Source: Chiloscyllium plagiosum
Lineage: Eukaryota
DNA length: 64,000 bases
NCBI RefSeq assembly: GCF_004010195.1
Contig: NC_057757.1
Span: 4,312,314 to 4,376,313, forward strand
Direction: 5' to 3'
The notes beneath the pieces were generated by a model. That model had not been told where the DNA came from, made no database searches, and worked only from the letters and a program-made list of their open reading frames with translations. The position numbers and the translations under genes are program-made. Shown here piece by piece: positions 34,255 through 64,000 of this stretch (positions are counted from its first letter, which is position 1; each line of letters opens with the position of its first letter).

Positions 34255-34270
34255 CTATTCCTGCATCATA
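33693..34270 (+). other. Candidate terminal (3'UTR) exon of gene A
   Basis: gctaac branch + atttctttcctgactttcag acceptor; repeat-free; AATAAA at 34249-34254. Confidence 0.5.
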
Positions 34271-37037: not shown

Positions 37038-37058
37038 CTCCATGTCCGTGACGATAAC
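37038..37058 (-). CDS. Microexon, 21 nt, GYRHGHG
   Basis: tctgtttgttccacag|GTTATCGTCACGGACATGGAG|gtaata. Confidence 0.8.
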
Positions 37059-40000
37059 CTGTGGAACAAACAGATTGGTGTTAATTCAAAACCTACATCG
37101 AGTCATACAGCACAGAACAGACCCTTCAGCCCAACCAGTCCATGCCGACCATAATTCCAAACTGAACCAGTCCCACCTGCCTGCTCCTGGCCCGTTTCTC
37201 TCCAAACCTTTCCTATTCATGGATTTATCTCAGTGTCATTTCAATGTTGCAACTGTTCCAGCATCCACCACTTCCTCAGGAAGTTCATTCCACACATGAT
37301 CCACCCTCTGTGCAAAAAAGGTTACCCCTCGTATCTTTGTGGAGAAAGTGAGGACTGCAGATACTGGAGATCAAAGCTGAAAATGTGTTGCTGGAAAGGC
37401 GCAGCAGGTCAGGCAGCATCCAGGGAACAGGAGAAGAAGGGCTTATGCCCAAAACGTTGATTCTCCTGTTCCCTGGATGCTGCCTGACCTGCTGCGCTTT
37501 TCCAGCAACACATTTTCAGCTCTACCCCTCGTATCTGCGTGTCTGCGTGGGTTTCCTCCGGGTGCTCCGGTTTCCTCCCACAGTCCAAAGATGTGCAGGT
37601 AAAGTGAATTGGCCATGCTAAATTGCCCATAGTGTTAGATAAGGGGTAAATGTAGGGGTATGGGTGGGTTGTGCTTTGGCGGGTCGGTGTGGACTTGTTG
37701 GGCCGAAGGGCCTGTTTCCACACTGTCATGTAATCTAATCTAAACCTCTGCAAGGGCACCTCTCAATCTCTTCTGCTCTAGTGAAGAAAGGCCCAGCCTA
37801 TCCAGCCTTTCACACGACAATTACTGTTCCATTGGGAATTTCACAGATCGTGGTTTGGGGATGTTCGCTTAAAAGGAAATGAACATCACAGTTCAAACTC
37901 AATTTATACATTTCTCCTTTGTTAATGAGATACTCAGCACGTGAGTGAAGTACCTATCAAAACTATATGCCTGTCTATCAGTTTATCTATCTATCTATCT
38001 ATTTAACTGTCTGCCTATCTATCTATCTGCCTGTCTACCTATATGTCCAACTATCTGTCTGTCGACATATGTATGTATGTACAGTTTTTCGGAAAATGAT
38101 TTATGCTTTCCTCTTCAGTCTGACTCCATTTCACCTTCATAATATCCCAATTGATCACATTTATCAACATTTTTATGAAGCACTGAAGAATGAAGAATGG
38201 ATGTTGAGATTGCCTCAGAAAAGATGTAATGCAGATGTTAAGTGACTGATTGTAAAACAGGAGCTTGGTCCGAGATGTCCTGAGATTTTATATCCACTTT
38301 AGGACAGCAAGTGGATAATTTTCAGTATGTTCTGGTTAATGCTCACGTCTCAGGGCAGTACAGAGCTGTGTAACAGAGAAATATTGCAAACACAGCCTGG
38401 TTAATGCTGACATCTCAGGGCAGGACAGAACTGAGTAACAGAGAAACATTACAAACCCAGCCTGGTTAATGCTCACATCTCAGGGCAGGACAGAGCTGCG
38501 TAGCAGAGGAAAATTACAAACACAGCCTGGTTAATGTTCACATCTCAGGGCAGGACAGAGCTGAGTAACAGAGAGACATTACAAATACAGCCTGGTTAAT
38601 GTTCACATCTCAGGGCAGGACAGAGCTGAGTAACAGAGAGACATTGCAAACACAGCCCGGTTAATGCTCACATCTCAGCGCAGGACAGAGCTGAGTAACA
38701 GAGAAACAGTACAAACACAGCTTGCTTAATGCTCACATCTTAGGGAAGGACAGGCTGGAGTAGCTCAGAACCTCCTTTGCTCGAGTTTAATAATCTGATT
38801 AATTTCCCCCTGGGTATGGACACGTACAGCAGGTCGCTTGAAATATCTTGCTTTAAGGAATACACCCACCCCACTCGATATTGGAACAATCTTGGATAAC
38901 AGTATTAATGACTCTCGCCCATATTGTCTGCTGTCTTTATTGTACATTGCACACAGCAAGAACTTCCTTTCTATGGGATTTCCGCAGTTACCATCAGAAT
39001 AATGTGCTCAGTGTCCCTGAAGTGTTTTAAGAGACACAGATCAGGAGGTCAGAGTCTGAGATCTCTCAGGAAGGAGCTGATATGGGGAGTTGATGCCATG
39101 ATTCCTATTGACAGCTGAATGTCTCAACCAGCAGCAACGTTTGGCACCAGGGCCATTGACTGCTTTAAGTTAGGAAAAGGCAGATTGGTGTCATATTATA
39201 GTCAATTCTCAGCCACTGGTACCAAGAACAGAACATTGATGCCCTGGGCACTGTATCTGGGGAGTTGTGTCACCATGGGGACAGTCAGGCTGCAGTATAT
39301 GGATATGTGTCTATCTCTCACCCACATGCTCAGTCTCTCTTATTGGTGATAGAGAATGAGAACTCTTAGATTAAAGATATTACCTCCATATCCGGGACCA
39401 TAACCTGTGGAATAAACAGATTGTTGTTAATTCAAAACCTGCATCGGGTCATACAGCACAGAACAGTCCTTTCAGCCCAACCAGTCCATGCCGACCATAA
39501 TTCCAAACTAAACCAGTCCCACCTGCCTGCTCCTGGCCCGTTTCTCTCCAAACCTTTCCTATTCATGGATTTATCTCAGTGTCATTTCAATGTTGCAACT
39601 GTTCCAGCATCCACCACTTCCTCAGGAAGTTCATTCCACACATGATCCACCCTCTGTGCAAAAAAGGTTACCCCTCGTATCTGTTTTAAAGCTCTTAAAG
39701 ATGTGCCGCCTAGTCTTGACATCCCCCATCCGATGGAAAATACACATATCACGAACTCTGTCTGTAGCCCTCACTCACTTTATAGACCTCTGCAAGGGCA
39801 CCTCTCAATCTCCTCTGCTCCAGTGGAGAAAGGCCCAGCCTATCCAGCCTTTCACACAACACTTACTGTTCCATTGGGAATTTCACAGATCGTGGTTTGG
39901 GGATGTTCGCTTAAAAGGAAATGAACATCACAGTTCAAACTCAATTTATACATTTCTCCTTTGTTAATGAGATAATCAGCATGTGAGTGAAATACCTATG

Positions 40001-43000
40001 TAACTATTTGCCTGTCTGTCGGTCTATCTATCTATTTAACTATCTACCTATCTATCTATCTGTCTATCTATCTGCCTGTCTGCCTGTCTACCTATGAGTC
40101 CATCTATCTGTCTGGCTATGTATCTATGTATGTATGTGTAGGCTTTAGGAAAATGACTTATGCTTTCCTCTTCAGTCTGACTCCATTTCACCTTTATAAT
40201 ATTCCAGTGGATCACATTTATTGACATTTTTATGAAACACTGAAGAATGAAGAATGGATGTTGAGATTGCTTCAGAAAAGATTTAATGCAGATGTTAAGT
40301 GACTGATTGTAAAACGTGAGCTTGGTGCGAGATATCTTGTGATTTTATATCCATTTTAGGACAGCAAGGATGCTCAATTTTGAATCTGATCGGGTTCAGG
40401 CTCACATCTCAGGGCAGGACAGAGCTGAGTAACAGAGAGACATTGCAAACACAGACTGGTTAATGCTCACATCTCAGGGCAGCACAGAGCTGAAGAACAG
40501 AGGGACATTGCAAACGCAGCCTGGTTAATGCTCACATCTCAGGGCAGGACAGAGCTGAGTAACAGAGAGACTTTGCAAACACAGCCTGTTTAATGCTCAC
40601 ATCTCAGGACAGGACAGATCTGAGTAACAGCGAAACACTGCAAACACAGCCTGTTTAATGCTCACATCTCAGGACAGGACAGAGCTGAGTAACAGAAACA
40701 TTGCAAACACAGCCTGGTTGATACTGACATCTCAAGGCTGCACTTGCTGTAGTACCTCAGTGGCCAGCGTTTAATAATCTGATCAATTTCCCCCTGGGTA
40801 TGGACACGTACCGCAGGTCGATTAAATATCTTGCTTTAAGGATTACACCCACCCCACTCGATATTGGAACAGTCTTGGATAACAGTATTAATGATTCTCG
40901 CCCATTTTGTTTGCTGTCTTTATTGTACTTTGCACACAGCAAGAACAGCCTTTCTATGGGATTTCCGCTGTCACAATCAGAATAATGCGTTCAGTGTCTC
41001 TGTTGTGTTTTCAGAGACACAGATCAGGAGGTTAGAGTCTGAGATCTCTCAGGAAGGAGCTGATATGGGAAGTTGACGCCACGATCCCTAGTGACAGCTG
41101 ATTGTCTCAACCAGCAGCAACGTTTGGCCCCAGGCCCATTGACTGCTTTAGGTTAGGAAACGGCAGATTGTTGTCATATTATAGTCAATTCTCAGCCACT
41201 GGTACCAAGAACAGAACATTGATGCCCTGGGCACTGTATCTGGGGAGTTGTGTCACCATGGAGACAGTCAGGGTGCAGGATATAGATATGTGTCTATCTC
41301 TCGCCCACATGCTCAGTCTCTCTATCCTTATTGCTGATAGAGAATGAGAACTCTTAGATTAAAGATATTACCTCCATGTCCGGGACCATAACCTGTGGAA
41401 CAAACAGATTGGTGTCAATTCAAAACCTGCATCGAGTCATACAGCACAGAACAGACCCTTCGGCCCAACCAGTCCATCCCGACCATAATCCCAAACTAAA
41501 CCACTCCCTCCTGCCTGCTCCTGGCCCGTTCCTCTCCAAACGTTTCCTAATCATGGATTCATCTCAGTGTCATTTCAATGTTGCAACTGTTCCAGCATCC
41601 ACCACTTCCTCAGGAAGTTCATTCCACACATGATTCACCCTCTGTGCAAAAAAGGTTACCCCTCGTATCTGTTTTAAAGCTCTTAAAATTGTGCCGCCTC
41701 GTCTTGACATCCACCATCCGAGGGAAAATACACAACTCTGTCTATAGCCCTCACTCACTTTATAGACCTCTGCAACGGCACCTCTCAATCTCCTCTGCTC
41801 CAGTGAAGAAAGGCCCAGCCTATCCAGCCTTTCACACGACAATTACTGTTCCATTGGGAATTTCACAGATCGTGGTTTGGGGATGTTCACTTAAAAGGAA
41901 ATGAACATCACAGTTCAAACTCAATTTATACATTTCTCCTTTGTTAATGAGATAATCAGCACGTGAGTGAAATCCTATCTAACTATATGCCTGTCTGTCG
42001 GTCTATCTATCTACCTATCTATCTATTTAACTATCTACCTATCTATCTAACTGTCTATCTATCTGCCTGTCTGCCTGTCTACCTATGAGTCCATCTATCT
42101 GTCTGGCTATGTATCTATGTATGTATGTATAGGCTTTAGGAAAATGATTTATGCTTTCCTCTTCAGTCTGACTCCATTTCACCTTTATAATATTCTAGTG
42201 GATCACATTTATTGACATTTTTATGAAACACTGAAGGATGAAGAATGGATGTTGAGATTGCTTCAGAAAAGATTTAATGCAGATGTTAAGTGACTGATTG
42301 TAAAACATGAGCTTGGTGCGAGATGTCCTGAGATTTTATATCCACTTTAGGACAGCAAGGTAGGACAATTTTGAATCTGATCGGGTTCAGGCTCACATCA
42401 CAGAGCAGGACAGAGCTGAAGAACAGAGAGACATTGCAAACACAGCCTGGTTAATGCTGACATCTCAGGACAGGACAGAGCTGAGTAACAGAGAGACATT
42501 GCAAACACAGCCTGGTTAATGCTCACATCTCAGGGCAGGACAGAACTGAGTAACAGAGAAACATTGCAAACGCAGCCTGTTTAATGCTCACATCTCAGGG
42601 CAGGACAGAACTGAGTAACAGAGAAACATTGCAAACACAGCCAGTTTAATGCTCACATCACAGGACAGGAGAGAGCTGAGTAACAGAGAAACACTGCATA
42701 CACAGCCTGTTTAATGCTCACATCTTAGGACAGGACAGAGCTGAGTAACAGAAACATTGCAAACACAGTCTGGTTAATGCTGACATCTCAGGGAAGGACA
42801 GGCTGTAGTAACTCAGTAGCCAGCATTTAATAATCTGATCAATTTCCCCTTGGGTATGGACACGTAAGCAGGTCGATTAAATATCTTGCTTTAAGGATTA
42901 CACCCACCCCACTCGATATTGGAACAATCTTGGATAACAGTATTAATGACTCTCGCCCATTTTGTTTGCTGTCTTTATTGTACTTTGCACACAGCAAGAA

Positions 43001-44060
43001 CGACCTTTCTGTGGGATTTCCGCTGTCACCATCAGAATAATGTGCTCAGTGTCCCTGTTGTGTTTTCAGAGACACAGATCAGGAGGTTAGAGTCTGAGAT
43101 CTCTCAGGAAGGAGCTGATATGGGGAGTTGATGCCATGATCCCTATTGACAGCTGAATGTCTCAACCAGCAGCAACGTTTGCCCCCAGGCCCATTGACTG
43201 CTTTAGGTTAGGAAAAGGCAGATTGTTGTCAGATTATAGTCAATTCTCAGCCACTGGTACCAAGAACAGAACATTGATGCCCTGGGCACTGTATCTGGGG
43301 AGTTGTGTCGCCATGGGGACAGTCAGGGTGCAGGATATAGATATGTGTCTATCTCTCACCCACATGCTCAGTCTCTCTTATTGCTAATAGAGAATGAGAT
43401 CTCTTAGATTAAAGATATTACCTCCATGTTCGCCACGGTAACCTGTGGAACAAACAGATTGGTGTCAATTCAAAACCTGCATCGAGTCATACAGCACAGA
43501 ACAGACCCTTCGGCCCAACCAGTCCATGCCGACCATAATCCCAAACTAAACCAGTCCCACCTGCCTGCTCCTGGCCCGTTTCTCTCCAAACCTTTCCTAA
43601 TCATGGATTCATCTCAGTGTCATTTCAATGTTGCAACTGTTCCAGCATCCACCACTTCCTCAGGAAGTTCATTCCACACATGATCCACACTCTGTGCAAA
43701 AAAGGTTACCCCTCGTATCTGTTTTAAAGCTCTTAAAAATGTGCCGCCTTGTCTTGACACCCCCCATCCGAGGGAAAATACACAACTCTGTCTATAGCCC
43801 TCACTCACTTTATAGATCTCTGCAAGGGCACCTCTCAATCTCCTCTGCTCCAGTGAAGAAAGGCCCAGCCGATCCAGCCTTTCACACGACAATTACTGTT
43901 CCATTGGGAATTTCACAGATCATGGTTTGGGAATGTTCGCTTAAAAGGAAATGAACATCACAGTTGGAACTCAATTTATACACTTCTCCTTTGTTAATGA
44001 GATAATCAGCACGTCAGTGAAATACCTATCTAACTATATGCCTGTCTGTCGGTCTATCTC

Positions 44061-44148
<88 letters not shown>

Positions 44149-47100
44149 CCTGTCTGCCTGTCTACCGATGTGTCCATCTATCTGTCTATGTATCTATGTG
44201 TGTATAGGCTTTAGGAAAATGATTTATGCTTTCCTCTTCAGTCTGACTCCATTTCACCTTTATAATATTCCAGTGAATCACATTTATTGACATTTTTATG
44301 AAACACTGAAGGATGAAGAATGGATGTTAAGATTGCTTCAGAAAAGATTTAATGCAGATGTTAAGTGACTGATTGTAAAACCTGAGCTTTGTGCGAGATG
44401 TCCTGAGATTTTATATCCATTTTAGGACAGCAAGGATGTTCAATTTTCAATCTGATCGGGTTCAGGCTCACATCTCAGGGCAGGACAGAGCTGAAGAACA
44501 GAGAGACATTGCAAACACAGCCTGGTTAATGCTGACATCTCAGGGCAGGACAGAACTGAGGAACAGAGAAACACTGCAAACGCAGCCTGTTTAATTTTCA
44601 CATCTCAGGACAGGACAGAGCTGAGTAACAGAGAAACACTGCAAACACAGTGTGTTTAATGCTCACATCTCAGGACAGGACAGAGCTGAGTAACAGAGAA
44701 ACATGCACAAACACAATCTGGTTAATGCTGACATCTCAGGGAAGGACAGGCTGTAGTAACTCAGTAGTCAGCATTTAATATTCTGATCAATTTCCCCCTG
44801 GGTATGGACACGTAAGCAGTTCGATTAAATATCTTGCTTTAAGGATTACACCCACCCCACTCAATATTGGAACAATCTTGGATAACAGTATTAATGACTC
44901 TCGCCCATTTTGTCTGCTGTCTTTATTGTACATTGCACACAGCAAGAACGACCTTTCTATGGGATTTCCGCTGTCACCATCAGAATAATGTGCTCAGTGT
45001 CCCTGTTGCGTATTCAGAGACAATGATCAGGAGGTTAGAGTCTGAGATCTCTCAGGAAGGAGCTGATATGGGGAGTTGACGCCACGATCCCTATTGACAG
45101 CTGAATGTCTCAACCAGCAGCAACGTTTGCCCCCAGGCCCATTGACTGCTTTAGGTTAGGAAAAGGCAGATTGTTGTCATATTATAGTCAATTCTCAGCC
45201 ACTGGTACCAAGAACAGAACATTGATGCCCTGGGCACTGTATCTGGGGAGTTGTGTCACCATGGAGACAGTCAGGGTGCAGGATATAGATATGTGTCTAT
45301 CTCTCACCCACATGCTCAGTCTCTCTTATTGCTGATAGAGAATGAGAACTCTTAGATTAAAGATATTACCTCCATGTCTGGGACCATAACCTGTGGAATA
45401 AACAGATTGGTGTCAATTCAAAACCTGCATCGAGTCATACAGCACAGAACAGACCCTTCGGCCCAACCAATCCATGCCGACCATAATCCCAAACTAAACC
45501 AGTCCTACCTGCCTGCTCCTGGCCCATTTCTCTCCAAACCTTTCCTATTCATGGATTTATCTCAGTGTCATTTCAATGTTGCAACTGTTCCAGCATCCAC
45601 CACTTCCTCAGGAATTTCATTCCACACATGATCCACACTCTGTGCAAAAAAGGTTACCCCTCGTACCTGTTTTAAAGCTCTTAAAAATGTGCCGCCTAGT
45701 ATTGACACACCCCATATTAGGGAAAATACACATAACATTAACTCTGTCTATAGCCCTCACTCACTTTATAGACCTCTGCAAGGGCACCTCTCAATCTCCT
45801 CTGCTCCAGTGAAGAAAGGCCCAGCCTATCCAGCCTTTCACACGACACTTACTGTTCCATTGGGAATTTCACAGATCGTGGTTTGGGGATGTTTGCTTAA
45901 AAGGAAATGAACATCACAGTTCAAACTCAATTTATACATTTCTCCTTTGTTAATGAGATCATCAGCACGTGAGTGAAATACCTATCTAACTATATGCCTG
46001 TCTGTCGGTCTATCTATCTATCTATCTATTTAACTATCTACCTATCTATCTATCTGTCTATCTATCTGCCTGTCTGCCTGTCGGCCATTGAGTCCATCTA
46101 TCGGTCTGACTATGTATCTATGTATGTATGTATAGGCTTTAGGAAAATGATTTATGCTTTTCTCTTCAGTCTGACTCCATTTCACCTTTATAATATTCCA
46201 GTGGATCACATTTATTGACATTTTTATGAAACACTGAAGGATGAAGAATGGATGTTGAGATTGCTTCAGAAAAGATTTAATGCAGATGTTAAGTGACTGA
46301 TTGTAAAACGTGAGCTTGGTGCGAGATGTCCTGAGATTTTATATCCACTTTAGGACAGCAAGGATGTTCAATTTTGAATCTGATCGGGTTCAGGCTCACA
46401 TCTCAGGACAGGACAGAGCTGAGTAACAGAAACATTGCAAACACAGTCTGGTTAATACTGACATCTCAGGGCAGGACAGGCTGTAGTAACTCAGTGGCCA
46501 GCGTTCAATAATCTGATCAATTTTCCCCTGGGTATGGACACGTACAGCAGGTCGATTAAATATCTTGCTTTAAGGATTACACCCACCCCACTCGATATTG
46601 GAACAATCTTGGATAACAGTATTAATGACTCTCGTCCATTTTGTCTGCTGTCTTTATTGTACTTTGCACACAGCAAGAACGACCTTTCTATGGGATTTCC
46701 ACTGTCACCATCAGAATAATGTGCTCAGTGTCTCTGTTGTGTTTTCAGAGACACAGATCAGGAGGTNNNNNNNNNNNNNNNNNNNNNNNNNNNNNNNNNN
46801 NNNNNNNNNNNNNNNNNNNNNNNNNNNNNNNNNNNNNNNNNNNNNNNNNNNNNNNNNNNNNNNNNNNNNNNNNNNNNNNNNNNNNNNNNNNNNNNNNNNN
46901 NNNNNNNNNNNNNNNNNNNNNNNNNNNNNNNNNNNNNNNNNNNNNNNNNNNNNNNNNNNNNNNNNNNNNNNNNNNNNNNNNNNNNNNNNNNNNNNNNNNN
47001 NNNNNNNNNNNNNNNNNNNNNNNNNNNNNNNNNNNNNNNNNNNNNNNNNNNNNNNNNNNNNNNNNNNNNNNNNNNNNNNNNNNNNNNNNNNNNNNNNNNN

Positions 47101-48147
47101 NNNNNNNNNNNNNNNNNNNNNNNNNNNNNNNNNNNNNNNNNNNNNNNNNNNNNNNNNNNNNNNNNNNNNNNNNNNNNNNNNNNNNNNNNNNNNNNNNNNN
47201 NNNNNNNNNNNNNNNNNNNNNNNNNNNNNNNNNNNNNNNNNNNNNNNNNNNNNNNNNNNNNNNNNNNNNNNNNNNNNNNNNNNNNNNNNNNNNNNNNNNN
47301 NNNNNNNNNNNNNNNNNNNNNNNNNNNTTATAGTCAATTCTCAGCCACTGGTACCAAGAACAGAACATTGATGCCCTGGGCACTGTATCTGGGGAGTTGT
47401 GTCACCATGGAGACAGTCAGGGTGCAGGATATAGATATGTGTCTATCTCTCACCCACATGCTCAGTCTCTCTTATTGCTGATAGAGAATGAGAACTCTTA
47501 GATTAAAGATATTACCTCCATGTCCGCCATGGTAACCTGTGGAACAAACAGATTGGTGTCAATTCAAAACCTGCATCGAGTCATACAGCACGGAACAGAC
47601 CCTTCGGCCCAATCAGTCCATGCCGACCATAATCCCAAACTAAACCAGTCCCACCTGCCTGCTCCTGGCCCGTTTCTCTCCAAACCTTTCCTACTCATGG
47701 ATTCATCTCAGTGTCATTTCAATGTTGCAACTGTTCCAGCATCCACCACTTCCTCAGGAAGTTCATTCCACACATGATCCACACTCTGTGCAAAAAAGGT
47801 TACCCCTCGTATCTGTTTTAAAGCTCTTAAAAATGTGCCGCCTCGTCTTGACATCCCCCATCCGAGGGAAAATACACAACTCTGTCTATAGCCCTCACTC
47901 ACTTTATAGATCTCTGCAAGGGCACCTCTCAATCTCCTCTGCTCCAGTGAAGAAAGGCCCAGCCTATCCAGCCTTTCACACGACAATTACTGTTCCATTG
48001 GGAATTTCACAGATTGTGGGTTGGGGATGTTTGCTTAAAAGGAAATGAACATCACAGTTGAAACTCAATTTATACATTTCTCCTTTGTTAATGAGATAAT
48101 CAGCACGTGAGTGAAATACCTATCTAACTATATGCTTGTCTGTCTGC

Positions 48148-50016: not shown

Positions 50017-53000
50017 CATCTATCTATCTATCTGTCTATCAGTTTAACAACTTAATGCAGTTGTTAAGTTACTGAGTGTAGAACATTAGTTTGGTCCGAG
50101 ATATTGTCAGATTTTATATCCACTTTGAGAAAGCAAAGTTGTTCAATTTTGTGCATCATCTGGTTAATGCTCACATCACGGGACAGGGCAGAGCTAAATT
50201 GCCCCACAGTGTCCGGGTATGTGCAGGTTAGGGTGGATTGGCCGTGCTGAATTGTCCCATCGTGTCCAGGGATGTGCAGGTTAGGATAGATTGGCCGTGC
50301 TAAATTGTCCCATCGTGTCCAGGGATGTGCAGGTTAGGGTGGATTGGCCGTGCTAAATTGTCCCATAGTGTCCAGGGATGTGCAGGTTAGGGTGGATTGG
50401 CTGTGGAAAATGTGAGGAGATGGTTCAGGGTGAGCTGAATTCAAATTCCACCATCTGGCAGTGGCAGGTTTCGAACCCGGGTCCCTAGACTCTCTGGATT
50501 AACATAATAGCACTAAGCCATTCCTGACTGAATTTTCGTAAACCTGGACACCGCTTTTAAACCATTAATGCTTACCACAGTATATAACTGAACCTCAAGG
50601 GGGTCTACATCCCACTCACCCAACCACACATCGACGACCAAACCTTCCACCCAATGTTATATCCAGCAGCCGAAAAATCCTTGGGAACCCATGGGCTTTG
50701 ACATAGTTGGCCAGATNNNNNNNNNNNNNNNNNNNNNNNNNNNNNNNNNNNNNNNNNNNNNNNNNNNNNNNNNNNNNNNNNNNNNNNNNNNNNNNNNNNN
50801 NNNNNNNNNNNNNNNNNNNNNNNNNNNNNNNNNNNNNNNNNNNNNNNNNNNNNNNNNNNNNNNNNNNNNNNNNNNNNNNNNNNNNNNNNNNNNNNNNNNN
50901 NNNNNNNNNNNNNNNNNNNNNNNNNNNNNNNNNNNNNNNNNNNNNNNNNNNNNNNNNNNNNNNNNNNNNNNNNNNNNNNNNNNNNNNNNNNNNNNNNNNN
51001 NNNNNNNNNNNNNNNNNNNNNNNNNNNNNNNNNNNNNNNNNNNNNNNNNNNNNNNNNNNNNNNNNNNNNNNNNNNNNNNNNNNNNNNNNNNNNNNNNNNN
51101 NNNNNNNNNNNNNNNNNNNNNNNNNNNNNNNNNNNNNNNNNNNNNNNNNNNNNNNNNNNNNNNNNNNNNNNNNNNNNNNNNNNNNNNNNNNNNNNNNNNN
51201 NNNNNNNNNNNNNNNNAGGTTAAATGGATGAGCATAGCCAGCCATCAGAGCGATTTTTGCTATTTTGACAATTTCCCTGCTCACTGACCGCAGGATTGTT
51301 TGGGAGTGAGAAGCTGTTTCCCCTGGGACTTTTAAAATTCTGTTTGGGTTTGCACAGGCACCATCTTCAAATATACTGATGATGTCCTCCATTTCTTAGT
51401 GAAGCTACAGCTGGTGGTTTGAGTGACCGGGCAGCTCAGTGTTTATCACTGCTGCCCTGTGGTGCCAGGGATATGGGTTTGATTCCAACACCAGGTGAGT
51501 GTCTGTCTGTGTGGAGCATGCATGTTCTTTCTGTGTGGGTTTCCTCCTGCAGTCCAAAAGTATGCAGATTGGGTGGATTTGTAGATTCATAGAACCCCGA
51601 CAAAATGCTAGATCGTCCCAACAGTATCCAGGAACAGGCAGGCTAATAGGGTTCACTATAGGAGATGCAGGGATGGAGTGGGGTGCTCGTTCGAGGGTCA
51701 ATGTGGTTGAATGGCCTGCTTCATTGTTAGATTCCTGCTATCTGAGGTTTATCTTTGTAATGGTAGACATTGTGTTTTCTGTATTATCTATATCTTGTAA
51801 TTACAGAAGATGTGCCTTGGTACGTTTGTATCTAAGTTGGCGCTGTCATTGGTGAAGTATAAACGTTTGACTGTACTCGTTGCGTAGATGTGACAATAAA
51901 GGCTACTCTATTCTACATCCTCTGGTAACATGATGTGGAGGTGCCAGCGTTGGATTGGGGTAGGTAAGGTCAGAAGTCACACAACAATAGGTTATAACCC
52001 AACAGGTTTATTTGAAATCACAAGCTTTCAGAATGCTGTCTGGTGAAGTGAGCTCTTCTGATGAAGGAGCAGAATTCCCATGAGTTGTGATTTCAAGTAA
52101 ACCTATTGGACTATAACCTGGTGTTGTGTGATTTCTGACACTGTTAACACACATACTTATTGCTTGACAAGTAACTTCATAGACAAGGTCTTTACTTCAA
52201 TAATTTTGAAGAGCTAATGGGAGGAAATTAGAGAAAACTTTACCATAATCGCCATAACCTCCGTAACCTGAGGAGACAAGAGAGATTTGAGTTAATGTTG
52301 TCATGGAGATTGCAGCCTCACAGCGCCAGAGACCCGAGTTCAATTCCCGCCTCAGGCGACTGACTGTGTGGAGTTTGCACATTCTCCCTGTGACTGCGTG
52401 GGTTTCCTCCGGGTGCTCCGGTTTCCTCCCACAATCCAAAAATGTGCAGGTTAGGTGAATTGGCCACGCTAAATTGCCCGTAGTGTTAGGTAAGGGGTAA
52501 ATGTAGGAGAATGGGTCTGGGTGGGTTACGCTTCGGCAGGTCGGTGTGGACTTGTTGGGCCGAAGGGCCTGTTTCCACACTGTAGGTAATCTAATTCAAA
52601 TCTAATTGGTTTTGGAATCTACATGTTCAGCCACACAATCAGTTTGACAATGGGTCATGTCCAAAGATTTCAAGTTGACGTTGCTCATTCAAAATTCAAA
52701 TGGACTCCACCTTTCAAAATTAGTTTCTTTCAGTTTATTGATCCTTCCCCTTCGCTCAGATAAATATCACACTTTTGAGGGAAATGGTATTCTGGATTGT
52801 ACTATCTCCCTCAAATCATGGGGGAGGTACACGGAAGGGTGATTGGAGAGACAGGTGTGATTTTCCCTCCCCTCCACCTATCCCTAGAGGCAGGAATGGT
52901 GGGAGATCAATTCTTCCTGCGGTCGGTACCTAATTTACTCAATTTAATGGCCAATTTGCAGTCGTTTCCCGCTCCCCCTTCAACCCAAAACCTCCACTGC

Positions 53001-56000
53001 CAGCATTTCATCAGCATCAGGATGATCCCCAAAATCTTTATACCCAATGTCGATGGGGTGGCATGGTGGCTCAGTGGTTAGTGCTGCTGCCTCACAGTGC
53101 CAGGGTCTGAGGTTTGACTCCTGTCTCAGGTGACTGTCTGTGTGGAGTTTGTGCATTTTTCCTGTGTCTGTGTGGTTTCCCTCCCACAGTCCAAAGATGT
53201 GCATGTTAGTGTGGATTGGCCGTGTTAAATTGTTCCATATAATCCAGGGACATGCAGGCTAATAGGGTTAACCATGGGAGTTACAGGGTTGGAGGGGGAT
53301 GATCTTTGGAGGGATATGTTGACTGAATGGCCTGTTTCCATATTTTATTGATTCTATGATCTCCCAGACAGAATCTGTCATTGCTATTTTCCTGCCACTG
53401 GAATTTTATCTTTGTAATGGTGGACATTGTGTTTTCTGTATTATCGAAATCTTGTAACTACAGACGTTGTGCCTGGGTACTTTTGCATCTAAGCTGGCAC
53501 TGTCATTGGTGAAGTATAAACATTTGACTGTACTCGTTGCGTAGATTGACAATAAAAGCTACTCTACTCTATTCTACATCCTCTGATAACATGACGTGGA
53601 GGTGCCAGCGTTGGATCGGGGTAGGTAAGGTCAGAAGTCACATGACACCAGATTATATCCCAACAAGTTTATTTTGAAATCACAAGCTTTCAGAGTGTTG
53701 TCAGACGAAGTGAGTTCTCCTGATGAAGGAGCAGCGCTCCAATGAGTTGTGATTTCAAATAAACGTGTTGGAAAATTACCTGCTATCGTATACCCTCTGA
53801 TTCTGATAACAGGCATAATTATTCCTTGACCAGTAACGTCATAGACAAGGGCTTTACTTCACTAATTTTGAAGAGCTAATGGTAAGAAATCAAAGAGAAA
53901 ACTTTACCATAACCACCATAACCTTTGTAACCTGAGGAGACAAGGGAGATTTGAGTTAATGTTGTCATGGAGATTGGTTTTGGAATCTACATGTTCAGCC
54001 ACACAATCAGTTTGACAACGGTTCATGTCCAAAGATTTCAACTTGACGTTGCACATTCAAAATTCAAATGGACTCCACCTTTCGAAATTAGTTTCTTTCA
54101 GTTTATCAATCTTTCCCCTTCATTCAGATAAGTATCACATTCTTGAAGGAAATGATTTTGTGGATTGTACTATCTCCTTCAAATCATGGGGTGAGTCACG
54201 GGAGGGTAACAGCAGAGACAGGTGTGATTTTCCTTCCCCTCCACCTATTCTCAAAAGCAGGAATGGTAAAAGCTCAATTCTTTCTGTGGTCAGTAGCTAA
54301 TTCACACAATTTAACAGGAGAAAGTGAGGTCTGCAGATGCTGGAGATCAGAGCTGAAAATGCGTTGCTGGAAAAGCGCAGCAGGTCAGGCAGCATCCAGG
54401 GAACAGGAGAATCGACGTTTCGGGCATAAGCCCTTCCTGTTGCTGCGCTTTTCCAGCAACACATTTTCAGCACACAATTTAATAGCCAATTTGCAGTGGC
54501 TTCCACCCCATAGCCCACCTCTACTGCCAGCATTTCATCAGCATCAGAATGATCCCCAAATTCGTTACACCCGATGTCAATGGGGTGGCATGGTGGCTCA
54601 GTGGTTAGTGCTGCTGCCTCACAGTGCTAGGAACCCAGGTTTGATTCCAGCCTTCGGTGACTGGCTACGTGGAGTTTGTGCATTTTCGTCGTGTCTGTGT
54701 GGGTTTCCTTATACAGTCCAAAGATGTGTAGGTTTGTGTGCTTTGGCCATGTCAAATTATCCCGTATTATCCAGGGACATGCAGGCTAATAGGATTAGCC
54801 ATGGGAGTTGCAGGGTTGGAGGGGGATTGTCTTTGGAAGGAGATGTGGGCTAAATGGTGTGCTTCCACAGTATGATTTTTCTATGATTTCCCAGACAGAA
54901 TCTATCATTGCTATATTCCTGCTATTGGAGTTTTGTCTTTGTAATGGTGGGCATTGTTATTGGAGTTTTGTCTTTGTAATGGTGGGCATTGTGTTTTCTG
55001 TATTATCTAAATCTTGTCACTATAGAAGCTGTGCCTGGGTACGTTTGTATCTAAGCTGGCGCTGTCATTGGTGAAGTATAAATGATTCACTGTACACATT
55101 GAGTAGATGTGTCAATAAAGGCTACTCTATTCTCCATCCTCTGGTAACATGATGTGGAGGTGCCAGTGTTGGATTGGGGTAGGTAAGGTCAAACGTCACA
55201 CGACACCAGGTTATAACCCAACAAGGTTATTTGAAATCACAAGCTTTCAGAGCATTGTCTGGTGAAGTGAGTTCTCCTGATAAAGGATCAGCGCTTCAAT
55301 GGGTTGTGATTTCAAATAAACCTGATGGACTATTACCTGGTGTCGTGTAACCTCTTACTCACATACTTATTCCTTGACCAGTAGCTTCATAGACAAGGGC
55401 TTTATTTCATTAATTTTGAAGAGCTAATGGGAGGAAATTAAACAGAAAACTTTACCATAACCGCGTCCGTGACCTGAGGAGACAAGAGAGATTTGAGTTA
55501 ATGTTGTCATGGAGATTGGAATCTACATGTTCAGCCACACAATCAGTTTGACAATGGTTCATGTCCAAAGATTTCAACTTGACGTTGCTCATTCAAAATT
55601 CAAAATGGACTCCACCTTTCGAAATTAGTTTCTTTCAATTTATTGATCCTTCCCCTTCGCTCAGATAAATATCGAACTCTTGAGGGAAGTGATATTCTGG
55701 ATTGTTGTATCTCCCTCAAATCATGGGGGAGTCACGGAAGGGTGATGGGAGAGACAGCTATCCCCAAAAGCAGGAATGGTAAAAGCTCAATTCTTCCTGT
55801 GGTCGGTAGCTAATTCACTCAATTTAATCGCCAATTTGCAGTTGTTTCCCGCTCCACCTTCACCCCCAAACCTCTACGGCCAGCATTTCCCTAACCCCCC
55901 AAACTCTACTGCCAGCATTTCATCAGCATCAGGATGATNNNNNNNNNNNNNNNNNNNNNNNNNNNNNNNNNNNNNNNNNNNNNNNNNNNNNNNNNNNNNN

Positions 56001-59000
56001 NNNNNNNNNNNNNNNNNNNNNNNNNNNNNNNNNNNNNNNNNNNNNNNNNNNNNNNNNNNNNNNNNNNNNNNNNNNNNNNNNNNNNNNNNNNNNNNNNNNN
56101 NNNNNNNNNNNNNNNNNNNNNNNNNNNNNNNNNNNNNNNNNNNNNNNNNNNNNNNNNNNNNNNNNNNNNNNNNNNNNNNNNNNNNNNNNNNNNNNNNNNN
56201 NNNNNNNNNNNNNNNNNNNNNNNNNNNNNNNNNNNNNNNNNNNNNNNNNNNNNNNNNNNNNNNNNNNNNNNNNNNNNNNNNNNNNNNNNNNNNNNNNNNN
56301 NNNNNNNNNNNNNNNNNNNNNNNNNNNNNNNNNNNNNNNNNNNNNNNNNNNNNNNNNNNNNNNNNNNNNNNNNNNNNNNNNNNNNNNNNNNNNNNNNNNN
56401 NNNNNNNNNNNNNNNNNNNNNNNNNNNNNNNNNNNNNNNNNNNNNNNNNNNNNNNNNNNNNNNNNNNNNNNNNNNNNNNNNNNNNNNNNNNNNNNNNNNN
56501 NNNNNNNNNNNNNNNNNNNNNNNNNNNNNNNNNNNNNNNNNNNNNNNNNNNNNNNNNNNNNNNNNNNNNNNNNNNNNNNNNNNNNNNNNNNNNNNNNNNN
56601 NNNNNNNNNNNNNNNNNNNNNNNNNNNNNNNNNNNNNNNNNNNNNNNNNNNNNNNNNNNNNNNNNNNNNNNNNNNNNNNNNNNNNNNNNNNNNNNNNNNN
56701 NNNNNNNNNNNNNNNNNNNNNNNNNNNNNNNNNNNNNNNNNNNNNNNNNNNNNNNNNNNNNNNNNNNNNNNNNNNNNNNNNNNNNNNNNNNNNNNNNNNN
56801 NNNNNNNNNNNNNNNNNNNNNNNNNNNNNNNNNNNNNNNNNNNNNNNNNNNNNNNNCAAATCATGGGGGAGTCACGGAAGGGTGATGGGAGAGACAGCTA
56901 TCCCCAAAAGCAGGAATGGTAAAAGCTCAATTCTTCCTGTGGTCGGTAGCTAATTCACTCAATTTAATTGCCAATTTGCAGTTGTTTCCCGCTCCACCTT
57001 CACCCCCAAACCTCTACGGCCAGCATTTCCCTAAACCCCCAAACTCTACTGCCAGCATTTCATCAGCATCAGGATGAGTCCTAAAATCTTTTTACCCAAT
57101 GTTGATGCAGTGGCATGATGGCTCCATGGTTAGTGCTGCTGCCTCATAGTGCCTGGAACCCAGGTTTGATTCCAACCTCAGGTGAATGTCTGTGTGACAC
57201 TTGTGCATTTTCCCTGTGTCTGCGTGTGTTTCCTCCCACCGTCCAAAGATGGACAGCCTAGTGTACCTTGACCATTTTAAATTGTCCCATAGTACCCAAG
57301 GATATGCAGGCTAATAGCGTTAACCATGGGAGTTGCAGGGATGGATTGGGATGCTCTTTTAGGGTCAATGTGGGCTGAATGGCCTGCTTCTACACTGTGA
57401 ATATTCCATGAATTCCCAGACAGAATGTGTCATTGCTATATTCCTGCTATTGGAGTTTTGTCTTTGTAATGGTGGACATTGTGTTTTCTGTATTATCTAA
57501 ATCTTGTAACTACAGAAGCTGCGCCTGGGTACGTTTTGTATCTAATTTGGCGCTGTCATTGGTGAAGTGTAAATGATTCACTGTACTCGTTGAGTAGATG
57601 TGTCAATAAAGGCTACTCTACTCTATTCTCCATCCTCTGGTAACATGATGTGGAGGTGCCAGCGTTGGATTGGGGTAGGTAATGTCAAACGTCACACGAC
57701 ACCAGGTTATAACCCAACAGGTTTATTTGAAATCACAAGCTTTCAGAGCGTTATCTGGTGAAGTGAGTTCTGCTGATAAAGGATCAGCGCTCCAATGGGT
57801 TGTGATTTCAAATAAACCTGATGGACTATTACCTGGTGTCGTGTAACCTCTTACTCACATACTTATTCCTTGACCAGTAACTTCATAGACAAGGGCTTTA
57901 TTTCATTAATTTTGAAGAGCTAATGGGATGAAATTAAAGAGAAAATTTTACCATAACCGCCGCGGCCTTTTTTACCTGAGGAGACAAGAGAGATTTGAAT
58001 TAATGTTGTCATGGAGATTGGTTTTGGAATCTACATGTTCAGCCACACAATCAGTTTGACAATGGTTCATGTCCAAAGATTTCAACTTGACGTTGCTCAT
58101 TCAAAATTCAAAATGGACTCCACCTTTAGAAATTAGTTTCTTTCAATTTATTGATCCTTCCCCTTCGCTCAGATAAATATCGAACTCTTGAGGGAAGTGA
58201 TATTCTGGATTGTAGTATCTCCCTCAAATCATGGGGGAGTCACGGAAGGGTGATGGGAGAGACAGCTATCCCCAAAAGCAGGAATGGTAAAAGCTCAATT
58301 CTTCCTGTGGTTAGGAGCTAGTTCACTCAATTTAATGGCCAATTTGCAGTCGTTTCCCACTCCACCTTCACCCCCATACCACGGCAGCCAGCATTTCCCT
58401 AAACCCCCAAACTCTACTGCCAGAATTTCATCAGCACCAGGATGATCCCCAAAATCTTTATACCCAATGTTGATGCAGTGGCATGATGGCTCCGTGGTTA
58501 GTGCTGCTGCCTCATAGTGCCTGGAACCCAGGTTTGATTCCAACCTCAGGTAAATGTCTGTGTGACGCTTGTGTCTGCGTGTGTTTCCTCCCACCGTCCA
58601 AAGATGGACAGCCTAGTGTACCGTGACCATTTTAAATTGTCCCATCGTACCCAAGGATATGCAGGCTAATAGCATTAACCATGGGAGTTGCAGGGATGGA
58701 TTGGGATGCTCTTTTAGGGTCAATGTGGGCTGAATGGCCTGCTTCTACACTGTGAATATTCCATGAATTCCCAGACAGAATCTGTCATTGCTATATTCCT
58801 GCTATTGGAGTTTTGTCTTTGTAATGGTGGGCATTGTGTTTTCTGTATTATCTAAATCTTGTGACTACCAAAGCTGTGCCTGGGTACGTTTGTTGGCGCT
58901 GTCATTGGTGAAGTATAAACGTTTCACTGTACCCGTTGAGTAGATGTGACAATAAAGGCTATTCTCCATCCTCTGGTAACATGATGTGGAGCTGTCAGCG

Positions 59001-62000
59001 TTAGATTGGGGTAGGTAAGGTCAGAAATCACATGACACCTGGTTATAACCCAACAGGTTTATTTGAAATCACAAGCTTTCAGAGTGCTGTCTGGTGAAGT
59101 GAGTTCTCCTGATGCTTAGGTTGTGATTTCAAATAAACCTGTCGGAATGTAGGCTGGTGTTGTGTGATTTCTGAGTCTGATAACACACATACTTATTCCT
59201 TGACCAGTAGCTTCATAGACAAGGGCTTTATTTCATTAATTTTGAAGAACTAATGGGATGAAATTAAACAGAAAACTTTACCAAAACCGCCTCCGTGACC
59301 TGAGGAGACAAGAGAGATTTGAGTTAATGTTGTCATGGAGATTGGTTTTGGAATCTACATGTTCAGCCACACAATCAGTTTGACAATGGTTCATGTCCAA
59401 AGATTTCAACTTGACGTTGCTCATTCAAAATTCAAATGGATTCCACCTTTCGAAATTAGTTTCTTTCAATTTATTGATCCTTCCCCTTCGCTCAGATAAA
59501 TATCGAACTCTTGAGGGAAGTGATATTCTGGATTGTAGTATCTCCCTCAAATCATGGGGGAGTCACGGAAGGGTGATGGGAGAGACAGCTATCCCCAAAA
59601 GCAGGAATGGTAAAAGCTCAATTCTTCCTGTGGTCAGGAGCTAATTCACTCAATTTAATTGTCAATTTGCAGTCGTTTCCCACTCCACCTTCACCCCCAA
59701 ACCTCTACTGCCAGCATTTCCCTAAACCTCCAAACTCTACTACCAGCATTTCATCAGCATCAGGATGATCCCCAAAATCTTTTTACTCAATGTTGATGCA
59801 GTGGCATGGTGGCTCCATGGTTAGTGCTGCTGCCTCATAGTGCCTGGAACCCATGTGTGATTCCAGCCTCAGGTGAATGTCTGTGTGACGCTTATGCATT
59901 TTCCCTGTGTCTGCGTGTGTTTCCTCCCACTGTCTAAAGATGGGCAGCCTAGTGTACCTTGACCATTTTAAATTGTCCCATAGTACCCAAGGATATGCAG
60001 GCTAATAGTGTTAACCATGGGAGTTGCAGGGATGGATTGGGTTGCTCTTTTAGGGTCAATGTGGGCTGAATGGCCTGCTTCCACACTGTGAATATTCCAT
60101 GAATTCCCAGACAGAATCTGTCTTTGCTATATTCCTGCTATTGGAGTTTTGTCTTTGTAATGGTGGACATTGTGTTTTCTGTATTATCATTTCCGACGCC
60201 CCTTCCCCCAAGTCCCTCCTCCCTATCTTTTATCTTAGCCTGCTGGACCAACTTTCCTCCTTCCTGAAGAAGGGCTAATGCCCGAAACGTCGATTCTCCT
60301 GTTCCCTAGATGCTGCCTGACCTGCTGCGCTTTTCCAGCAACACATTTCCATATCTAAATCTTGTGACTACAGAAGCTGTGCCTGGGCATGTTTGTATCT
60401 AAGTTGACGCTGTCATTGGTGAAGTATAAACGTTTCACTGTACTCGTTGAGTAGATGTGACAATAAAGGCTATTCTCCATCCTCTGGTAACATGTTGTGT
60501 AGCTGTCAGCGTTGGATTGGGGTAGATAAGGTCAGAAAGCACACGACACCAGGTTATAACCCAACAGGTTTACTTGAAATCACAAGCTTTCAGAGTGCTG
60601 TCTGGTGAAGTGAGTTCTCCTGATGCTTAGGTTGTGATTTCAAATAAACCTGTCGGAATGTAAGCTGGTGTTGTGTGATTTCTGACTCTGATAACACACA
60701 TACTTATTCCTTGACCAGTAGCTTCATAGACAAGGGCTTTATTTCATTAATTTTGAAGAACTAATGGGAGGAAATTAAACAGAAAACTTTACCATAACCG
60801 CCATAATCTCCGGGACCTGAGGAGCCAAGAGAGATTTGAGTTAATGTTGTCATGGAGATTGGTTTTGGAATCTACATGTTCAGCCACACAATCAGTTTGA
60901 CAATGGTTCATGTCCAAAGATTTCAACTTGACGTTGCTCATTCAAAATTCAAATGGACTCCACCTTTTGAAATTAGTTTCTTTCAATTTATTGATCCTTC
61001 CCCTTCGCTCAGATAAATATCAAACTCTTGAGGGAAGTGATATTCTGGATTGTGGTATCTCCCTCAAATCATGGGGGAGTCACGGAAGGGTGATGGGAGA
61101 GACAGCTATCCCCAAAAGCAGGAATGGTAAAAGCTCAATTCTTCCTGCGGTCGGTAGCTAATTCACTCAATTTAATTGCCAGTTTGCAGTCGTTTCCCAC
61201 TCCACCTTCTCCCCCAAACCTCTACTGCCAGCATTTCCCTAAACCCCCAAAGTATACTGCCAGCATTTCATCAGCATCAGGATGATCCCCAAAATCTTTA
61301 TACCCAATGTTGATGCAGTGGCATGGTGGCTCAGTGGTTAGTGCTGCTGCCTCATAGTGCCTGGGACCCAGGTTTGATTCCAGCCTCAGGTAGATGTCTG
61401 TGTGACACTTGTGCATTTTCTCTGTGTCTGCGTGTGTTTCCTCCCACACTCTAAAGATGGGCAGCCTAGTGTAGCTTGACCATTTTAAATTGTCCCATAG
61501 TACCCAAGGATATGCAGGCTAATAGTGTTAACCATGGGAGTTGCAGGGATGGATTGGGTTGCTCTTTTAGGGTCAATGTGGGCTGAATGGCCTGCTTCTA
61601 CACTGTGAATATTCCATAAATTTTCAGACAGAATCTGTCATTGCTATATTCCTGCTATTGAAGTTTTGTCTTTGTAATGGTGGGCATTGTGTTTTCTGTA
61701 TTATCTAAATCTTGTGACTACAGAAGCTGTGCCTGGGTACGTTTGTATCTAATTTGGCGCTGTCATTGGTGAAGTATAAACGTTTCACTGTACTCGTTGA
61801 GTAGATGTGACAATAAAGGCTATTCTCCATCCTCTGGTAACATGATGTGGAGCTGTCAGCATTGGATTGGGGTAGATAAGGTCAGAAATCACACGACACC
61901 AGGGTTATAACCCAACAGGTTTATTTGAACTCACAAGCTTTCAGAGTGCTGTCTGGTGAAGTGAGTTCTCCTGATGCTTAGGTTGTGATTTCAAATAAAC

Positions 62001-63422
62001 CTGTCGGAATGTAAGCTGGTGTTGTGTGATTTCTGACTCTGATAACACACATACTTATTCCTTGACCAGTAGCTTCATAGACAAGGGCTTTATTTCATTA
62101 ATTTTGAAGAACTAATGGGAGGAAATTAAACAGAAAACTTTACCATAACCGCCATAATCTCCGGGACCTGAGGAGCCAAGAGAGATTTGAGTTAATGTTG
62201 TCATGGAGATTGGTTTTGGAATCTACATGTTCAGCCACACAATCAGTTTGACAATGGTTCATGTCCAAAGATTTCAACTTGACGTTGCTCATTCAAAATT
62301 CAAAATGGACTCCACCTTTCGAAATTAGTTTCTTTCAATTTATTGATCCTTCCCCTTCGCTCAGATAAATATCGAACTCTTGAGGGAAGTGATATTCTGG
62401 ATTGTGGTATCTCCCTCAAATCATGGGGGAGTCACGGAAGGGTGATGGGAGAGACAGCTATCCCCAAAAGCAGGAATGATCAAAGCTCAATTCTTCCTGT
62501 GGTCGGTAGCTAATTCACTCAATTTAATTGTCAATTTGCAGTCGGTTCCCACTCCACCTTCACCCTCAAACCTCTACTGCCAGCATTTCCCTAAACCCCC
62601 AAACTCTACTGCCAGCATTTCATCAGCATCAGAATGATCCCCAAAATCTTTATACCCAATGTTGATGCAGTGGCATGGTGGCTCCATGGTTAGTGCTGCT
62701 GCCTCATAGTGCCTGGAACCCATGTGTGATTCCAACCTCAGGTGAATGTCTGTGTGATGCTTGTGCATTTTCCCTGTGTCTGCGTGTGTTTCCTCCCACT
62801 GTCCAAAGATGGACAGCCTAGTGAACCTTGACCATTTTAAATTGTCCCGTAGTACCCAAGGGTATGCAGGCTAATAGCGTTAACCATGGGAGTTGCAGGG
62901 ATGGATTGGGACGCTCTTTTAGGGTCAATGTGGGCTGAATGGCCTGCATCCTCACATTGAATATTCCATGAATTCCCAGACAGAATCTGTCATTGCTATA
63001 TTCCTGCTATTGGAGTTTTGTCTTTGTAATGGTGGGCATTGTGTTTTCTGTATTATCTAAATCTTGTCATTACAGAAGCTGTGCCTGGGTACGTTTGTAT
63101 CTACGAGGAGACCCTGACCACGCCTGACCCCGTCCCCACGCCTACTTCTTCAACACGACACCAGGTTATAACCCAACAGGTTTATTTGAAATCACAGTCT
63201 TTCAGAGCGCTGTCTGGTGAAGTGAGTTCTCCTGATGCTTAGGTTGTGATTTCAAATAAACCTGTCGGAATGTAAGCTCGTGTTGTGTGATTTCTGACTC
63301 TGATAACACACATACTTATTCCTTGACCATTAGCTTCATGGACAAGGGCTTTATTTCATTAATTTTGAAGAGCTAATGGGATGAAATTAAATAGAAAACT
63401 TTACCATAACCGCCTCCGTGAC
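37038..63422 (-). CDS. Gene(s) B (incomplete model): microexon-built Gly/Tyr/His-rich protein(s)
   Basis: 14 intact phase 1-1 microexons, one per tandem repeat unit, all 18/21/24 nt with no stops. Confidence 0.8.
38332..38755 (+). repeat. 65-bp minisatellite (1-7 copies in each array-2 unit)
   Basis: gctcacatctcagggcaggacagagctgagtaacagagagacattgcaaacacagcctggttaat. Confidence 0.9.
39384..39404 (-). CDS. Microexon, 21 nt, GYGPGYG
   Basis: ttccacag|GTTATGGTCCCGGATATGGAG|gtaata. Confidence 0.82.
41372..41392 (-). CDS. Microexon, 21 nt, GYGPGHG
   Basis: ttccacag|GTTATGGTCCCGGACATGGAG|gtaata. Confidence 0.82.
43422..43442 (-). CDS. Microexon, 21 nt, GYRGEHG
   Basis: ttccacag|GTTACCGTGGCGAACATGGAG|gtaata. 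Confidence 0.8.
44053..44150 (+). repeat. (TATC)n microsatellite, variable in every array-2 unit
   Basis: Direct reading. Confidence 0.95.
45370..45390 (-). CDS. Microexon, 21 nt, GYGPRHG
   Basis: ttccacag|GTTATGGTCCCAGACATGGAG|gtaata. Confidence 0.8.
47516..47536 (-). CDS. Microexon, 21 nt, GYHGGHG
   Basis: ttccacag|GTTACCATGGCGGACATGGAG|gtaata. Confidence 0.82.
49341..49352 (-). pseudogene. Truncated microexon in the divergent edge unit (GHDG, donor deleted)
   Basis: ttctacag|GTCATGATGGTG|gatatc. Confidence 0.55.
52244..52267 (-). CDS. Microexon, 24 nt, GYGGYGDY
   Basis: ctctcttgtctcctcag|GTTACGGAGGTTATGGCGATTATG|gtaaag. Confidence 0.85.
52311..52606 (+). mobile_element. Young HE1-like SINE inserted in one array-3 unit
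   Basis: Interrupts ggagatt|ggttttggaatc, which is contiguous in the other units. Confidence 0.85.
53908..53931 (-). CDS. Microexon, 24 nt, GYKGYGGY
   Basis: ctcctcag|GTTACAAAGGTTATGGTGGTTATG|gtaaag. Confidence 0.85.
55456..55473 (-). CDS. Microexon, 18 nt, GHGRGY
   Basis: ctcctcag|GTCACGGACGCGGTTATG|gtaaag. Confidence 0.83.
57952..57975 (-). CDS. Microexon, 24 nt, GKKGRGGY
   Basis: ctcctcag|GTAAAAAAGGCCGCGGCGGTTATG|gtaaaa. Confidence 0.8.
59282..59299 (-). CDS. Microexon, 18 nt, GHGGGF
   Basis: ctcctcag|GTCACGGAGGCGGTTTTG|gtaaag. Confidence 0.83.
60793..60816 (-). CDS. Microexon, 24 nt, GPGDYGGY
   Basis: ctcctcag|GTCCCGGAGATTATGGCGGTTATG|gtaaag. Confidence 0.83.
62144..62167 (-). CDS. 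Microexon, 24 nt, GPGDYGGY
   Basis: ctcctcag|GTCCCGGAGATTATGGCGGTTATG|gtaaag. Confidence 0.83.
63405..63422 (-). CDS. Microexon, 18 nt, GHGGGY
   Basis: ctcctcag|GTCACGGAGGCGGTTATG|gtaaag. Confidence 0.83.
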
Positions 63423-64000
63423 CTGAGGAGACAAGAGAGATTTGAGTTAATGTTGTCATGGAGTTTGGTTTTGGAATCTACATGTTCAGCCACACAATCA
63501 GTTTGACAATGGTTCATGTCCAAAGGTTTCAACTTGACGTTGCTCATTCAAAATTCAAATGGACTCCACCTTTCGAAATTAGTTTCTTTCAATTTATTGA
63601 TCCTTCCCCTTCGCTCAGATAAATATCGAACTCTTGAGGGAAGTGATAGTCTGGATTGTAGTATCTCCCTCAAATCATGGGGGAGTCACGGAAGGGTAAC
63701 GGGATAGACAGGTGCGATTTTTCCTCCCCTCCGCCTTTCCCTAAAAGCAGGAATGGTGGAACATCAATGCTTCCTGAGGTTGGTAGCTAATTCACTCAAT
63801 TTAATGGCCAATTTGCAGTCATTTCCACCCCTTGTGATGGGAGAGACAGCTATCCCCAAAAGCAGGAATGGTAAAAGCTCAATTCTTCCTGTGGTCGGTC
63901 GCTAATTCACTCAGTTTAACGGCCAATTTGCAATCGTTTCCCGCTCCCCCTTCACCCCCAAACCTCTATTGCCAACATTTCATCAGCATCAGGATGATCC

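Follow-up and report, generated by a model that had tools for sequence, protein, structure and literature searches.

The window examined here, a stretch of 64,000 nt from the shark Chiloscyllium plagiosum (contig NC_057757.1, here C48), covers C48:4312314-4376313, so that a C48 position equals the window number plus 4312313; numbers above 64000 continue those of the window. The subject is a putative gene on the minus strand, whose exons within the window form a tandem series termed array 3. A preliminary description had placed eight segments of 18 or 24 nt there, and all eight were recovered at those places with the peptides as given, each preceded by tcctcag and followed by gtaaa. In the order in which the gene is read, the features are:

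63573..64000, minus strand: intron toward the gene start, continuing out of the window
63423..63572, minus strand: conserved block of 150 nt before an acceptor, given as an example copy; such a block is present before each array-3 exon
63405..63422, minus strand: exon GHGGGY, 18 nt
62144..62167, minus strand: exon GPGDYGGY, 24 nt
60793..60816, minus strand: exon GPGDYGGY, 24 nt
59282..59299, minus strand: exon GHGGGF, 18 nt
57952..57975, minus strand: exon GKKGRGGY, 24 nt
55939..56856, minus strand: assembly gap of 918 N, most likely hiding at least one further 18-nt exon, GHGRGY
55456..55473, minus strand: exon GHGRGY, 18 nt
53908..53931, minus strand: exon GYKGYGGY, 24 nt
52244..52267, minus strand: exon GYGGYGDY, 24 nt

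Three of the eight exons are thus 18 nt and five are 24 nt long. Each tandem unit holds one exon, as had been described, but the units are not uniformly of about 1.4 kb: exon-to-exon spacing was 1255–1664 bp (2502 bp across the gap), and inserted repeats were present in several units. In 200 Markov resamples the exon pattern arose by chance at a mean of 0.045 per 12-kb strand and never more than once in a resample; one unrelated match was found on the plus strand at 49575-49604. The eight copies arose by duplication and so represent a single origin, not eight independent events. A ninth exon had been expected in the gap, which measures 55939-56856 and not 55939-56855 as first given. This expectation is supported by contig C51916, whose positions 1-676 match window 55263-55938 at 99.3 % and which holds two GHGRGY exons 1355 bp apart, the second at a position inside the gap.

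The 58 residues encoded by the eight exons comprise 31 Gly (53 %), 13 Tyr (22 %), 3 His (5 %), 3 Asp, 3 Lys, 2 Pro, 2 Arg and 1 Phe, with no V, I, L, A or Ser. The earlier characterization as Gly/Tyr/His-rich therefore holds for Gly and Tyr but not for His. The reported absence of stops is true of phase 1 but does not set the frame, as phase 0 is equally open and a stop occurs in phase 2 only. The Gly/Tyr frame (phase 1) is fixed because an upstream signal exon ends in phase 1. Such an exon, with an ATG and a signal peptide, had been predicted beyond position 64000 and was found there, in a gap-free stretch:

67358-67351, minus strand: TATA-like box, read beyond the window
67270-67216 (L001:3270-3216), minus strand: coding part of exon 1, 55 nt, with ATG, predicted signal peptide MKYLCLFLLVSLMAVVMA and phase-1 donor
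66561-66547, minus strand: exon 2, DPEPF, 15 nt
65482-65462, minus strand: 21-nt family copy GHGDGYK whose acceptor reads 'cat', either a dead exon or an assembly error

Exon 1 lies about 3.8 kb and exon 2 about 3.1 kb upstream of array 3, and the assembly is free of gaps from exon 1 through the array down to 56857. Exon 1 consists of 18 codons plus 1 nt in every copy read, with the donor gtacgt at this locus. The signal peptide was judged by eye and by hydrophobicity, with cleavage predicted after Ala18. Exon 1 was the sole match of a signal-exon scan over 254 kb, which, by demanding a K or R close to the start, passed over the signal exon of gene A, a paralogue described below. Phase 1 is open across exon 1, exon 2 and the eight array exons (81 codons, no stops), so that ten or more coding exons are seen. 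In intron 1 (L001:2680-3150) lies a tandem repeat of about 42 bp, common to most family members and probably the reason why gene starts fall into assembly gaps.

Sequence conservation within the array was distributed unevenly. Pairwise difference among the eight units was 0.009–0.026 in the 150 nt before the acceptor versus 0.091 in bulk intron. Parsimony on the flank tree gave 13 steps in 150 acceptor-side sites versus 265 in 609 bulk sites (ratio 0.20, P=3e-13). The acceptor-side block is therefore likely to serve splicing control. The exons themselves showed 18 steps in 24 sites (ratio to bulk intron 1.72, P=0.024), with proportions of nonsynonymous (pN) and synonymous (pS) differences of 0.222 and 0.114, respectively. 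The only length change among them was of 6 nt, and CpG was retained in them, with observed/expected at 1.66 versus 0.35. For a second array in the window (array 2, below), pN was 0.204 versus a pairwise difference of 0.042 in bulk sequence. The array-3 gene is judged very probably real and expressed.

Exon 1 was used in a search of the genome, which returned eight loci. In five of the eight the 18 signal residues are identical, with only one synonymous difference, and the surrounding DNA is 83–98 % alike; the copies of gene A and C91784 differ from these shared residues. At C48:8.05 Mb lies a distant ninth member, in which a 55-nt phase-1 signal exon (MVYQNIFLLFSLLAVSMA) is followed by alternating 24- and 27-nt Gly/Tyr/His exons with the acceptor context of array 3. 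The array-3 gene thus appears to be one of at least nine related starts, a multigene family that the single-gene picture of the preliminary description had missed. Some unplaced copies may be second haplotypes. Family members are built of a promoter, a signal exon, micro-exons and a last exon; the last exons have a common 3' end, with AATAAA in five of the five shown. One short member is complete and gap-free: its exon 1 is at 263.6 kb and its last exon at 273254, with three micro-exons between them. The paralogue at C48:2.88 Mb (L053, C48:2877545-2884547, minus strand) has 12-nt exons and 6-nt exons (GY, DW), the latter among the shortest plausible coding exons. Other elements of the family and of the window are:

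1570..34270, plus strand: gene A, a convergent paralogue starting at C48:4283527, with micro-exons from before the window to 28279
37038..47536, minus strand: array 2, six intact 21-nt exons; a further copy at 49352 lacks a donor
50717..51216: scaffold join of 500 N; the unplaced scaffold C96586 ends exactly at the start of window 50716, as judged by the continuous copy C90234
C48:4406126-4423866, minus strand: a fourth array, at 94-112 kb, with exons of GSGGYGT and GKGYGTT types
C48:4384424-4385316 and C48:4399174-4399963: conserved upstream block, present also upstream of gene A, C96586, C91784, C100038 and the copy at C48:3.04 Mb
L016:5680-6135: CUB exon just left of the cluster

Gene A exons alternate between VGPGYGP and GKGYxxK types, and its last exon, of the family type, lies at 33693 with an AATAAA near 34250. 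Its signal peptide carries several changes, and the gene may be decaying. No start was found for the fourth array. A family last exon at C48:4388154 is on the plus strand, opposite to the fourth array, in the next scaffold, and one scaffold of this pair is probably misoriented. The conserved upstream block, of about 0.3–0.9 kb, was observed 0.2–5 kb upstream of most family starts and is a candidate shared enhancer.

This breadth bears on whether array 3 is merely a non-coding tandem repeat whose unit holds an exon-like motif by chance. The eight copies descend from one ancestor, so that a single chance motif could have been multiplied, and the open phase 0 fits as well. However, unrelated intron units (arrays 1, 2 and 3, the 94-112 kb array and that at 8.0 Mb) all contain Gly/Tyr exons of lengths divisible by three with homologous splice flanks. 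Furthermore, arrays 1, 3 and 8.0 Mb lie behind homologous signal exons, as does array 2 in the copy C90234. A chance motif is accordingly most improbable.

On the 3' side, the 500-N join probably conceals where the array-3 gene ends and where the next paralogue starts. In contig C90234, exon 1 and a VPEPF exon run directly into array-2 sequence, with array 3 absent, and C96586 matches the upstream region of C90234 at 98–99.9 %. From this arrangement array 2 most likely has its own start and would be a separate tandem paralogue. A reading of array 2 as the continuation of the array-3 gene was dropped, as C96586 with its own upstream region abuts window 50716. The 3' end of array 2 appears on C100447 and C99114. 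A search for a contig continuing 51217 recovered only the query itself, no family last exon was present in the sequenced part of C96586, and no convincing penultimate exon that shifts the phase or bears a stop emerged from scans. A piece of 610 bp at C7:41738554-41739163, 99 % identical to C99114, places a GYGYGYG exon on another chromosome and is either a transposed fragment or a misassembly.

The gene was compared with known systems of small exons and Gly-rich secreted proteins. Tropoelastin (ELN) is described as a secreted, Gly-rich, low-complexity protein that grew by replication of small exons, with cassette-like skipping possible, coding exon borders in phase 1:1 and an exon 1 that is essentially signal peptide (PMC12554196). 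The same borders are seen here, where a 55-nt exon 1 holds only the signal peptide and is followed by exons of 15, 18 and 24 nt. These features bring in an alternative in which the product is a matrix protein of elastic or fin fibres with Lys cross-links, similar to tropoelastin or to the Tyr-rich non-collagen part of elastoidin. The VGPGYGP/GKGYxxK alternation of gene A recalls, if loosely, the replicated hydrophobic and cross-linking pairs of elastin, and Tyr-rich non-collagen proteins are described in elastoidin (PMC6497306). In contrast, the C-terminal two-Cys RKRK domain was absent, in all three frames, from the six family last exons examined, which do not include that of the array-3 gene itself. 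Array 3 is also dominated by Tyr and has only three Lys and no V, I, L or A, whereas tropoelastin is dominated by V, A and P. Finally, the shark exons (6–36 nt) belong to a multigene family with exon birth and death, and no sequence homology was established. The missing Cys/RKRK end and the composition rule out membership of ELN, and a fibre matrix protein of either kind seems quite unlikely.

Schistosome micro-exon genes (MEGs) are described as coding mostly through very small symmetrical exons behind a signal peptide, in multigene families, with a fast-evolving mature part and a conserved signal part, and as restricted to flatworms (PMC4350168). All of these features except the restriction to flatworms recur in the shark genes. 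What sets the latter apart is that the intron unit around each exon is visibly duplicated and that the exons encode a Gly/Tyr repeat. Membership of the MEGs is ruled out by lineage, the genome being a 3.56-Gb one of vertebrate type with C1s-like neighbours, and no protein relative was found. The MEGs nevertheless suggest another explanation, namely a real gene for secreted host-defence peptides (antimicrobial or metal-binding) rich in Gly, His and Tyr, in which skipping and fast change give a pool of variants. The array-3 pN, above both pS and the intron rate, is consistent with this, and a high ratio of nonsynonymous to synonymous substitution is reported for the mature parts of MEGs as well (PMC4350168). 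So are the multigene family with its exon birth and death and the two C1s/C1r-like protease genes just left of gene A. Exon 2 yields X-Pro dipeptides (DP-EP, VP-EP), which resemble the pro-pieces of insect defence peptides. However, array 3 is near neutral in charge (3 Lys, 2 Arg and 3 Asp of 58), the long alternating hydrophobic/Lys units of gene A resemble a material more than a peptide antibiotic, and gene neighbours are no evidence of function. A host-defence role is considered unlikely.

Elasmobranch SCPP genes encode small secreted proteins with a conserved signal peptide, a Tyr-rich region and small exons, and are described as having mostly phase-0 introns, acidic products with SxE sites and a gene adjoining sparc-L (PMC9122587). 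The array-3 gene differs in having all introns in phase 1, no Ser, Asp at 3 of 58 residues and C1s/C1r-like genes as the neighbours found. Its intron phase and its lack of acidity and SxE sites rule out membership of the SCPPs. Among Gly/Tyr-rich proteins with GGY-type repeats are the tanned proteins of elasmobranch egg capsules, lamprin and the high Gly-Tyr keratin-associated proteins, to which the likeness is one of description only. Keratin-associated proteins are intracellular and intronless and are not known to be secreted; the signal exon and micro-exons, as against a single coding exon, rule out that the array-3 gene is one of them.

The squid beak proteins HBP-1 to HBP-3 use GHGxY repeats and His-catechol cross-links, and such secreted tandem Gly/His/Tyr repeats suit His/Tyr cross-linking and phase separation (PMC9999432). 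Array 2 read in order contains the GHGxY motif twice. Array 3, from another phylum, has neither the tandem GHGxY/GAGFA repeats nor the His richness of the squid proteins (GHGxY 0, His 5 %). The reading of array 3 as part of a gene made in the preliminary description is supported for the part that it covered, but the functional likeness to squid beak and keratin-associated proteins stays an analogy, for the squid proteins one of composition only.

Gly/His/Tyr repeats are also described for the cross-linked structural proteins of worm jaws, as of squid beak (PMC9999432). By analogy with such proteins, there is about an even chance that array 3 forms the main coding part of a shark gene whose secreted product, rich in Gly and Tyr, would be cross-linked and harden some extracellular material. 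The egg case is the best single guess for that material, and a tentative one. The gene would have grown by tandem duplication of one exon-intron cassette. As every exon is in phase 1-1 and a multiple of three in length, the reading frame survives when a copy is gained, lost, inactivated or skipped. The acceptor-side conserved block is likely to ensure that exons as short as these are included; the residues of the peptide units may change by drift or selection within the set G, Y, H, K, R, D, P and F. Cleavage of the signal would leave a secreted, disordered chain rich in GGY, in which Tyr, His and Lys side chains could take part in oxidative cross-linking or phase separation.

A broader and more speculative proposal is that nine or more secreted Gly/Tyr/His/Lys-rich genes of sharks form an undescribed family clustered on a chromosome and made wholly of 6–36-nt phase-1 exons, which would be to vertebrates what the micro-exon genes are to schistosomes. 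Its repeat would be tuned by cassette duplication, exon death and positive selection. The egg case (or fin elastoidin) would owe its long-sought tanned, non-collagen components to these genes, and the family may share its origin with tropoelastin; as a whole this combination is doubtful. Tropoelastin is described as first appearing in sharks without a clear ancestor (PMC12554196), and a common origin with this phase-1 cassette family is therefore worth testing.

Several observations weigh against a functional gene for a hardened material. Collagen is described as the main constituent of the catshark egg capsule, for which tanning is also mentioned (PMC10230700). For the array-3 gene, no last exon was found in this part of the assembly. 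The six family last exons have no frame with a common stop position; their phase-1 tails are 8–67 aa long, and phase 0 looks more alike. The parsimony excess was not significant in array 2 (ratio 1.33, P=0.23). Gene conversion could partly account for the acceptor-side conservation, and the bulk intron rate may be inflated by repeats and misalignment. Other points fit a once-functional family gene that is now silent or broken, its array persisting through recent duplication. Intact AG and GT in all eight copies have a probability of 0.18 under neutrality at the bulk rate, which is not significant alone. The copies at 65482 and 49352 are dead under this explanation, 15 of the 46 gene A copies are not intact (31 are, in a hand-compiled list, and the copy at 16132 has an in-frame stop), and the exon-1 copy at C48:3.04 Mb is interrupted by a stop and lacks a donor. 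However, at the array-3 locus the promoter and signal exon are intact, conservation before the acceptors is strong, and there is neither a stop nor a frameshift despite a pN of 0.22. A silent gene is thus judged rather improbable.

Protein searches returned no relative for a natural frame over the last exon of a paralogue or for two natural frames with paralogous signal peptides, and for the gene A last exon gave one bacterial match (E=8e-5) judged to be chance; these searches were weak, as the queries were natural frames from paralogues and not the spliced product. No RNA data set was listed for window 57000-63500. Exon 1 gave no records in two single-cell RNA runs, of which about 2 % and 6 %, respectively, were covered, or in one possible RNA contig set, and three records in one DNA set; the source tissues being unnamed, these outcomes speak neither for nor against expression. 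A literature search met no description of this family; most subscription journals were outside its scope, so that unpublished status is not proven. The family is apparently unannotated. Its exons are shorter than aligner seeds, which makes such genes nearly invisible to annotation. The array-3 gene reveals a shark family of probable secreted material proteins unmatched in the protein collections searched, and supplies named primers and peptides with which the hardening of shark egg cases or fin fibres can be studied. In addition, it is a clear natural record of a repeat protein growing cassette by cassette, with live and dead copies side by side.

The C1s/C1r-like genes to the left of gene A and the cluster are represented by two trypsin-family protease exons (L014:3405-4193 and L017:6876-7859, plus strand), that on L014 with its best match to complement C1s/C1r. 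Near the cluster, the 150 longest of 1951 non-repeat open reading frames gave trypsin, CUB, seven-transmembrane (7TM) and zinc-finger matches and no SPARC domain, short exons lying outside this screen. A 201-residue uninterrupted frame with C2H2 zinc-finger matches (L028:3387-3989, minus strand) is possibly a processed pseudogene. At L010:4365-5387, plus strand, lies a single-exon rhodopsin-family 7TM receptor of 341 residues.

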